Shown here piece after piece: positions 46,252 through 48,009 of a DNA stretch of 64,000 nucleotides (the stretch's first letter is position 1; each line of letters opens with the position of its first letter). Below the pieces are notes generated by a model. That model searched no databases, was not told the DNA's origin, and was given only the letters and a program-made list of their open reading frames with translations. Where the stretch lies: NCBI RefSeq assembly GCF_056712565.1, contig NZ_CM160072.1; one strand, 5' to 3'. The translations under genes and the position numbers were made by a program.

Positions 46252-48009
46252 TTAACCCTGCAGCAGAGACAGAACCTGCTGCGGTACCTGGTTGGCTTTT
46301 GCCAGCACGGAGTTACCGGCCTGCTGGATAATCTGCGCTTTCGACATGTTGGACACTTCGGTCGCATAGTCGGCGTCCTGAATACGGGACTGCGCTTCAG
46401 ACAGGTTGGTAGTGGTGTTGTTCAGGTTGGTGACTGCGGAATCCAGACGGTTCTGGATAGCACCCAGGGAAGAACGGAATTTGTCGATGGAGCTGATAGC
46501 GTCGTCCAGGGCAGCAAGCGGGTTGGTCGTTGCAGAACCAGCACTGGTAGTCTCAGTAGTGATTTTACCCGCGGAGTTCACATTTACAGCAGTACCAATT
46601 GCTGGAGCATAATCTTTATTGGTATCAGTCGCTGAAGCATACCCGGCAACAGTCACAGAGCCGTTATCCTTGTTAACGCTGTAAGAGACTGTATAGTCGG
46701 CAACGTTAGTAATACCACCTTTATCATCCACATAAGACTTCGCAGCATCACTGGATTCACCCGCGGTAAACCCAATAGTTTTGCTCAGTACACCGGAATT
46801 AAAGGTAATTGAAGATGTCGCGGCAGCCGCTTTGGTTTCGCTCAATACTACATCTTTACTCACTGTAGCCTGATAAGTAATCCCACCAGGGATTAACGGA
46901 GCTACTGGAGAGGTTGTCGCAGGAGTTGCTTTTGCGATAGTATATTCAGTGCCATTGAATGTCAGAGAAGCACCGTCACTACCTTCGCTCGCGGCTTTAA
47001 GCAGCGCTTTCATATCAGCTTTAGCTGCGCTACCAGCGTTGTTAGTCGTCAAGTTGCCTGCATCGTCTACGTATGCCTGGCTTCCACCGATGGTGATATT
47101 ACCTGCTGAATCCGTTTCGAAAGAAACAGTACCATCTTTTGTGGTGTAAGAACCATTAACAGATTTACCCACATCAGCATGAAGGGTGGCAGCTAACGCA
47201 TCACGTTTTTTAGCTGAATCAGTAGCCTGCGCCGCGGCGTCTACACCCGTACCAGCAGTAGATTTGGTGGTAGTAAAATCACCAGATTTAGCGTTGTAAG
47301 TATAATCTACGCCGCCAACGGTGACTTTATCGCCATTCCCTAATTTATCGAATGCAGCATCGGTAGTTAACAAGGTATTTTCGGTTTTCAGATCATAAAG
47401 ACCTGTCGTGGTGTTTAACTTCGCGCCAGCAGAAGTTAAATCACTTACCGTTGCAGCTTTGTTGGTAATAGTACCTTTACCATTTACGTTAAAACCATTC
47501 AGACCCAGAGTATCAGAATCGATTTTCTTCAGGTCGATAGTGATAGTTTCACCGTCATTCGCACCAACCTGAATTTTCATCGAACCGTCTTTTGCCAGTA
47601 CGTTCACGCCGTTGAACTGGGTCTGGCCGGATACGCGGTCAATTTCATCAAGACGGGATTTGATTTCGTCCTGAATGGAGTCCAGATCCGAATCAGAGTT
47701 AGTTCCGGTAGAAGCCTGAACCGTCAGCTCACGGATACGCTGTAAGTTGTTGTTGATTTCAGACAGCGCGCCTTCGGTGGTCTGTGCAACAGAAATACCG
47801 TCGTTGGCGTTACGTGCAGCCTGAGTCAGGCCTTTAATGTTAGAAGTAAAACGGTTAGCAATCGCCTGACCCGCGGCGTCATCCTTCGCGCTGTTAATAC
47901 GCAAGCCAGAAGACAGACGCTCGATAGAACTCGACAGCGCAGACTGGTTCTTGTTGATATTATTTTGAGTGATCAGCGAGAGGCTGTTGGTATTAATGAC
48001 TTGTGCCAT
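46252..48009 (-). CDS. fliC: Flagellin FliC (585 aa; conserved termini, strain-specific central domain)
   Basis: N-terminus MAQVINTNSLSLITQNNINKNQSALSSSIERLSSGLRINSAKDDAAGQAIANRF and C-terminus ...QVPQQVLSLLQG are canonical; the central ~300 aa is Thr/Ser/Gly/Ala-rich. Confidence 0.95.
   Translation of the reverse strand: MAQVINTNSLSLITQNNINKNQSALSSSIERLSSGLRINSAKDDAAGQAIANRFTSNIKGLTQAARNANDGISVAQTTEGALSEINNNLQRIRELTVQASTGTNSDSDLDSIQDEIKSRLDEIDRVSGQTQFNGVNVLAKDGSMKIQVGANDGETITIDLKKIDSDTLGLNGFNVNGKGTITNKAATVSDLTSAGAKLNTTTGLYDLKTENTLLTTDAAFDKLGNGDKVTVGGVDYTYNAKSGDFTTTKSTAGTGVDAAAQATDSAKKRDALAATLHADVGKSVNGSYTTKDGTVSFETDSAGNITIGGSQAYVDDAGNLTTNNAGSAAKADMKALLKAASEGSDGASLTFNGTEYTIAKATPATTSPVAPLIPGGITYQATVSKDVVLSETKAAAATSSITFNSGVLSKTIGFTAGESSDAAKSYVDDKGGITNVADYTVSYSVNKDNGSVTVAGYASATDTNKDYAPAIGTAVNVNSAGKITTETTSAGSATTNPLAALDDAISSIDKFRSSLGAIQNRLDSAVTNLNNTTTNLSEAQSRIQDADYATEVSNMSKAQIIQQAGNSVLAKANQVPQQVLSLLQG

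Follow-up and report, generated by a model that had tools for sequence, protein, structure and literature searches.

An intact fliC allele predicted to encode the H7 flagellin of ST95-like ExPEC Escherichia coli

The fliC locus of the 64-kb stretch of DNA analysed here (the window) raises the question of which H antigen is specified by a flagellin gene whose product is considerably longer than that of E. coli K-12. The initial annotation, made from the DNA letters, had reported a 585-aa fliC at 46252-48009 with canonical N- and C-terminal domains and a long Thr/Ser-rich centre, had judged it not to be K-12-like, and had tentatively associated its length with H7-type flagellins. In the ORF listing of the window we found exactly this ORF, intact and starting with ATG, on the minus strand (which had been left unstated) and between fliA and fliD (Table 1). 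The gene order, tcyJ-fliZ-fliA-fliC / fliD-fliS-fliT-amyA, is the same as in K-12 and, together with the divergent orientation of fliDST and a sigma-28 promoter, identifies the E. coli chromosomal fliC locus. According to the Pfam scan, the product is a bacterial flagellin of the FliC/FljB family, with Flagellin_N (PF00669) at residues 5-140 (E 1.5e-46, 158.3 bits against a cut-off of 26.6) and Flagellin_C (PF00700) at residues 499-583 (E 2e-31, 108.6 bits against a cut-off of 23) both above their curated cut-offs, so that the canonical termini are borne out. In addition, PF12445, an enterobacterial FliC central-domain family, matches residues 337-489 (E 8e-22), the peptide LQRIRELTVQ is present at residue 89 within the conserved D0/D1 region, and comparison with the PDB showed full-length matches to many solved flagellin filaments.

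Table 1. Coordinates of fliC, its predicted regions and its putative expression signals in the window
Feature	Position	Strand	Basis
fliC coding sequence, 585 aa + stop; predicted H7 flagellin, ExPEC/ST95-type sub-allele	46252..48009	-	ORF, Pfam, DNA identity
Codons 1-173, conserved N-terminal D0/D1 filament-core region	47491..48009	-	Flagellin_N; K-12 similarity
Codons 174-490, hypervariable outer-domain (D2-D4) region predicted to define the H7 antigen	46540..47490	-	~22% K-12 identity; H7 matches
Codons 491-585 + stop, conserved C-terminal D1/D0 region	46252..46539	-	Flagellin_C; 92% K-12 identity
Putative fliC sigma-28 (FliA, class 3) promoter, TAAAGGTTGTTTTACGACAGACGATAA	48086..48112	-	One mismatch to TAAA-N15-GCCGATAA
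Putative divergent sigma-28 promoter of fliDST	48205..48231	+	Exact TAAA-N15-GCCGATAA
fliC 3'UTR, homologous to K-12 small RNA FliX (b4827)	46055..46248 (~194 nt)	-	Alignment, ~95% identity
fliC intrinsic terminator, CCCCGCC-AAC-GGCGGGG then T7	46062..46078	-	Terminator scan, 7 G-C pairs + T run

The fliC gene of K-12 MG1655 (b1923) has 1497 nt and encodes 498 aa, and the 87-aa excess of the window protein is located entirely in the centre, where residues 174-490 (317 aa) correspond to K-12 residues 174-405 (~232 aa). The two proteins agree at 94% of the N-terminal 173 residues and at 92% of the C-terminal 95, whereas a forced alignment of the centres gives only ~22% identity. In the DNA, codons 1-173 are 72-100% identical to K-12 per 60-nt interval; identity to K-12 drops from at least 87% to 0-47% per interval across ~47434-46535 and then recovers, while identity to O157:H7 strain EDL933 stays at 93-100% over the same stretch. 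The possibility that the gene is a K-12-like H48 allele carrying an insertion would agree with the 92-100% identity to K-12 seen in the two terminal regions and in both flanks, but the centre is a wholly different sequence from that of H48 and K-12-type genomes are absent from the megablast matches of the central region, and we discard it outright. By these comparisons the allele of the window is a central-region replacement and not an insertion into H48. The earlier judgement that the strain is not K-12-like, with a centre much longer than that of the K-12 flagellin, is thus upheld, and a centre matching the K-12 H48 allele, which had been named as the outcome contrary to it, was looked for and not found.

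The description of the centre as long and Thr/Ser-rich stands only in its first part. The centre contains 15.8% Thr and 9.5% Ser (25.2% together) with alanine about as abundant as threonine (15.5%), compared with 21.7% S+T in the whole K-12 FliC, and over the entire window protein S+T amounts to 22.6%. Such a content is moderate, as is usual in E. coli flagellins, rather than distinctive, and we have rejected Thr/Ser richness as a special mark (for example of a glycosylation-type domain) because the composition is the same as that of K-12 FliC.

When the gene (1758 nt) was searched by megablast against 5,426 complete E. coli genomes, it was 100% identical over its 1758 nt to fliC of many of them, including DSM 30083 (= ATCC 11775), UTI89, NU14, S88 and IHE3034, and also APEC O1, UM146, PMV-1 and one genome labelled O84:H7; the alleles of DSM 30083, UTI89, S88, IHE3034, APEC O1 and NU14 therefore show no difference from the window gene, and its translation is the UTI89 protein WP_000079688.1. 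DSM 30083 (U5/41) is the type strain of E. coli and its serotype was established by serology as O1:K1(L1):H7 (PMC4334874), and UTI89 is listed as O18:K1:H7 (PMC6881718). The central-domain alignment that the initial annotation had proposed as a check was carried out by searching the H-determining region (46540-47490) alone with megablast, and with blastn for sensitivity, against the same 5,426 genomes. The region was present at full length and at least 97.6% identity in 491 of them, 112 at 99% or more and 379 between 97.6 and 99%, and the serotype-labelled records among the matches listed were all H7 (O157:H7, O55:H7, O27:H7 and O19:H7). Beyond these, coverage of the query fell to 17% or less (at ~70% identity) or to 7% (at 81%), and in this genome set the H7 central region is accordingly a discrete allele class, separated by a gap below which only fragments are found. 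Because the gene matches its counterpart in a serologically typed H7 strain at 100% identity and its centre belongs to this discrete class, we assign it to H7, which makes unambiguous what had been suggested tentatively from length. We consider it almost certain that the window fliC encodes the H7 flagellin, the flagellar filament subunit, of ST95-like ExPEC (ExPEC/APEC/NMEC) E. coli, and nothing in the sequence speaks to the contrary. The serological reactivity of the protein as H7 would follow from its identity to the typed strains.

Length by itself does not fix an H type, and a flagellin of a different H type could share only the 585-aa length with H7; moreover, 24 of the 41 nt differences from the EHEC H7 allele lie in gene nt 138-516, a hint of some intragenic recombination that could point to a hybrid resembling H7 whose central domain is recombinant. 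The first of these readings is opposed by the 100% identity of the entire gene to the typed H7 type strain and by a centre that is 98.7% identical to that of O157:H7 over its full length. As for the second, the differences in the cluster leave the amino acid unchanged in nearly every case (36 synonymous and 4 non-synonymous codons) and fall outside the antigenic centre. We therefore give this pair of readings a virtually negligible probability and retain the H7 assignment.

Two members of the H7 class deserve mention in their own right. Strain 2021CK-01361 (NZ_CP107720.1; L004:992-2752) carries an H7-class fliC of 586 aa with a one-codon insertion, and its central region, at 97.6% identity, is the most divergent full-length one of the class among the complete genomes. 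Furthermore, in one of the 491 genomes the record that contains the H7 central region is classified as plasmid and not as chromosome, which may reflect either an error in the labelling of the replicon or a copy that is truly plasmid-borne.

The cluster of differences at the 5' end of the gene, inside the conserved N-terminal coding region, is densest at 47674-47734 (gene nt 276-336), where they are mostly synonymous and the identity falls to 85% with the EDL933 H7 allele and to 80% with K-12. By megablast, the exact patch (47640-47790) occurs in only ~100 genomes, seemingly those with the ExPEC H7 allele; the exact matches listed are DSM 30083 and an O1:K1:H7 APEC strain, and other genomes reach at most 96.7% identity. 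The same search among the E. coli genomes found no donor allele for the cluster. This distribution suggests either an old intragenic recombination or a separate ancestry of the fliC 5' end.

The signals around the gene agree with those of the well-known locus. The fliC promoter reads TAAAGGTT-N-GACGATAA and is identical in K-12 and EDL933, the fliC-fliD intergenic region, in which both sigma-28 promoters are located, shares 99% identity with these two strains, and the promoter of fliDST precedes the fliD ATG at 48275 by 44 nt, only 0.04 exact matches to TAAA-N15-GCCGATAA being expected by chance in the window. fliC is a class-3 gene transcribed by FliA-RNA polymerase, and from this established knowledge of the E. 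coli flagellar regulon the fliC site in Table 1 can be expected to act as its promoter. A sigma-70 promoter scan over fliC returned 4 sites compared with 3.1 expected from shuffled sequence, which is no excess, and these sites were disregarded. Downstream, the 3'UTR is 93-95% identical to K-12 per 60-nt interval, and in K-12 fliX is annotated directly 3' of the fliC stop. As the Rfam scan of the whole window gave no family at the gathering threshold for this 3'UTR, its assignment to FliX is based on the alignment to the K-12 annotation, from which a FliX-like function is predicted. Compared with K-12 and EDL933, it shows several substitutions and a 1-nt deletion. The terminator, which closes the FliX-like 3'UTR, is kept in K-12 and EDL933 except for one loop base. 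Taken together, K-12 has the same fliC locus with the same promoter, 3'UTR and terminator, and identity to it amounts to 95-99% across the sigma-28 promoter, the two UTRs (5' and 3') and the terminator.

Expression cannot be read from DNA, and some E. coli variants of flagellated serotypes are non-motile, so that fliC might be intact but silent, as in a non-motile H- phenotype, and the allele would then have no phenotypic consequence. In the 64 kb of the window, however, the fliC ORF and promoter, fliA, fliZ, fliDST, flhDC and motAB are intact according to the annotation of a near-identical record, and the same record shows cheAW, flhBAE and fliE-I as intact, flg and the rest of fliF-R lying outside these 64 kb. 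We consider such a silent gene very improbable and retain an H7 flagellin gene that is presumably expressed.

With respect to lineage, the 24 kb around fliC match genomes of ST95-type ExPEC/APEC with the labels O1:K1:H7 and O2:K1:H7 at 100% identity, and the entire 64-kb window differs from strain ZJ3920 at 4 positions. The H type and the surrounding sequence thus place the window in the ST95-like O1/O2/O18:K1:H7 ExPEC/APEC lineage, and not with K-12 or EHEC. Flagellin of type H7 has been studied extensively as an antigen, adhesin, TLR5 agonist and diagnostic target, and publications cover the gene, the allele and what it means serologically, as well as the atomic structure of a protein nearly identical to its product. 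The annotation is in this sense routine and already known; the finding matters as annotation only and advances no open question.

Other features of the window were also observed. Between flagellar regions IIIa and IIIb, a segment at ~55405-58848 that separates yedK from fliE carries a porin gene annotated as ompC (55405-56487) together with ybcM, ybcL and emrE, gene names that in K-12 we take to be those of the cryptic prophage DLP12, located at another chromosomal site, so that the segment resembles an island left by a prophage. An exact sigma-28 consensus, TAAAGTTT-N-GCCGATAA, is found at 17652-17678 (-) just upstream of tar, where it overlaps the start of an opposite-strand match to the Rfam sRNA C0465 (17668-17745, +; 111.6 bits), and a one-mismatch site at 22238-22264 (-) lies inside the 5' end of the annotated flhC (22195-22773), upstream of motA. 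The Rfam scan also detected the sRNA MicL at 5470-5777 (-; 368 bits), which overlaps the 3' end of cutC and extends beyond it, the sRNA ES036 at 1492-1534 (+; 43 bits, slightly over the threshold) and three clustered tRNA genes at 35961-36260 (-), for which the near-identical record gives tRNA-Leu, tRNA-Cys and tRNA-Gly; all of these fit the expected K-12-like arrangement. Between cheR (14808-15668) and tar (15959-17620), the place of tap, the K-12 dipeptide chemoreceptor gene, is occupied by a 152-nt frameshifted remnant (15762-15913, -) annotated as 'Tar ligand binding domain-containing protein'. Uropathogenic E. coli are reported to have frequently lost Tap and Trg (Lane et al. 2006, as cited in PMC3559539).

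Regarding function, the allele can be fitted to the general scheme of flagellin assembly. FliS chaperones flagellin, which polymerises under the FliD cap, and domains D0/D1 form the filament core and bear the TLR5 epitope region. In the source strain, FliA (sigma-28)-RNA polymerase would transcribe fliC from the class-3 promoter, the conserved termini (D0/D1) would polymerise into the filament core and carry the surface recognised by TLR5, and the 317-residue centre would fold into outer domains D2-D4 carrying the H7 antigen; by homology to EHEC H7, these outer domains would dimerise into a sheath that alters the waveform and prolongs tumbling. The conserved D0/D1 regions, the sigma-28 promoter and the adjoining fliS and fliD are consistent with this scheme. 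For the source strain, sheath formation, motility behaviour, antigenicity and expression are predicted from the EHEC homologue and the literature.

Finally, the closest system described in structural terms is that of EHEC O157:H7, whose background differs from the ExPEC phylogroup-B2-type background of the window. The FliC of EDL933 also has 585 aa and shares 581 of them with the window protein (99.3%); the two genes differ at 41 nt, with the four non-synonymous codons giving S100T, T263A, K267S and S367T (window residue first). The best PDB match, 7SN4 (585 aa, 99.3% identity), shows these same four differences, three of them in the centre, and represents the EHEC O157:H7 filament as solved by cryo-EM (Kreutzberger et al. 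2022, PMC8931119). In that filament the large outer domains D2-D4 pair with those of subunits 5, 11 and 27 positions away to form a mesh-like outer-domain sheath, which leads to an intermediate waveform and a roughly doubled tumble duration, and mutation of the D4 interface residues N319/N323 breaks the sheath and impairs motility (PMC8931119). Both N319 and N323 of this D4 dimer interface are kept in the window FliC, within ...DDAGNLTTNNAGS..., and none of the four substitutions falls there; the D2-D4 domains with a conserved D4 interface that characterize the sheath (ODS) flagellins (EHEC H7, EPEC H6 and Achromobacter) are thus present in this protein. It is unlikely, although we would allow it a slim chance, that S100, T263, K267 and S367 together with the lineage-specific 5' patch change sheath packing, antigenic sub-specificity or TLR5 signalling, in which case H7 would be functionally heterogeneous between gut and extraintestinal pathogens. 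At 99.3% identity, the ExPEC sub-allele probably forms the same outer-domain sheath as EHEC H7, a structure that the filaments of K-12 lack (PMC8931119).
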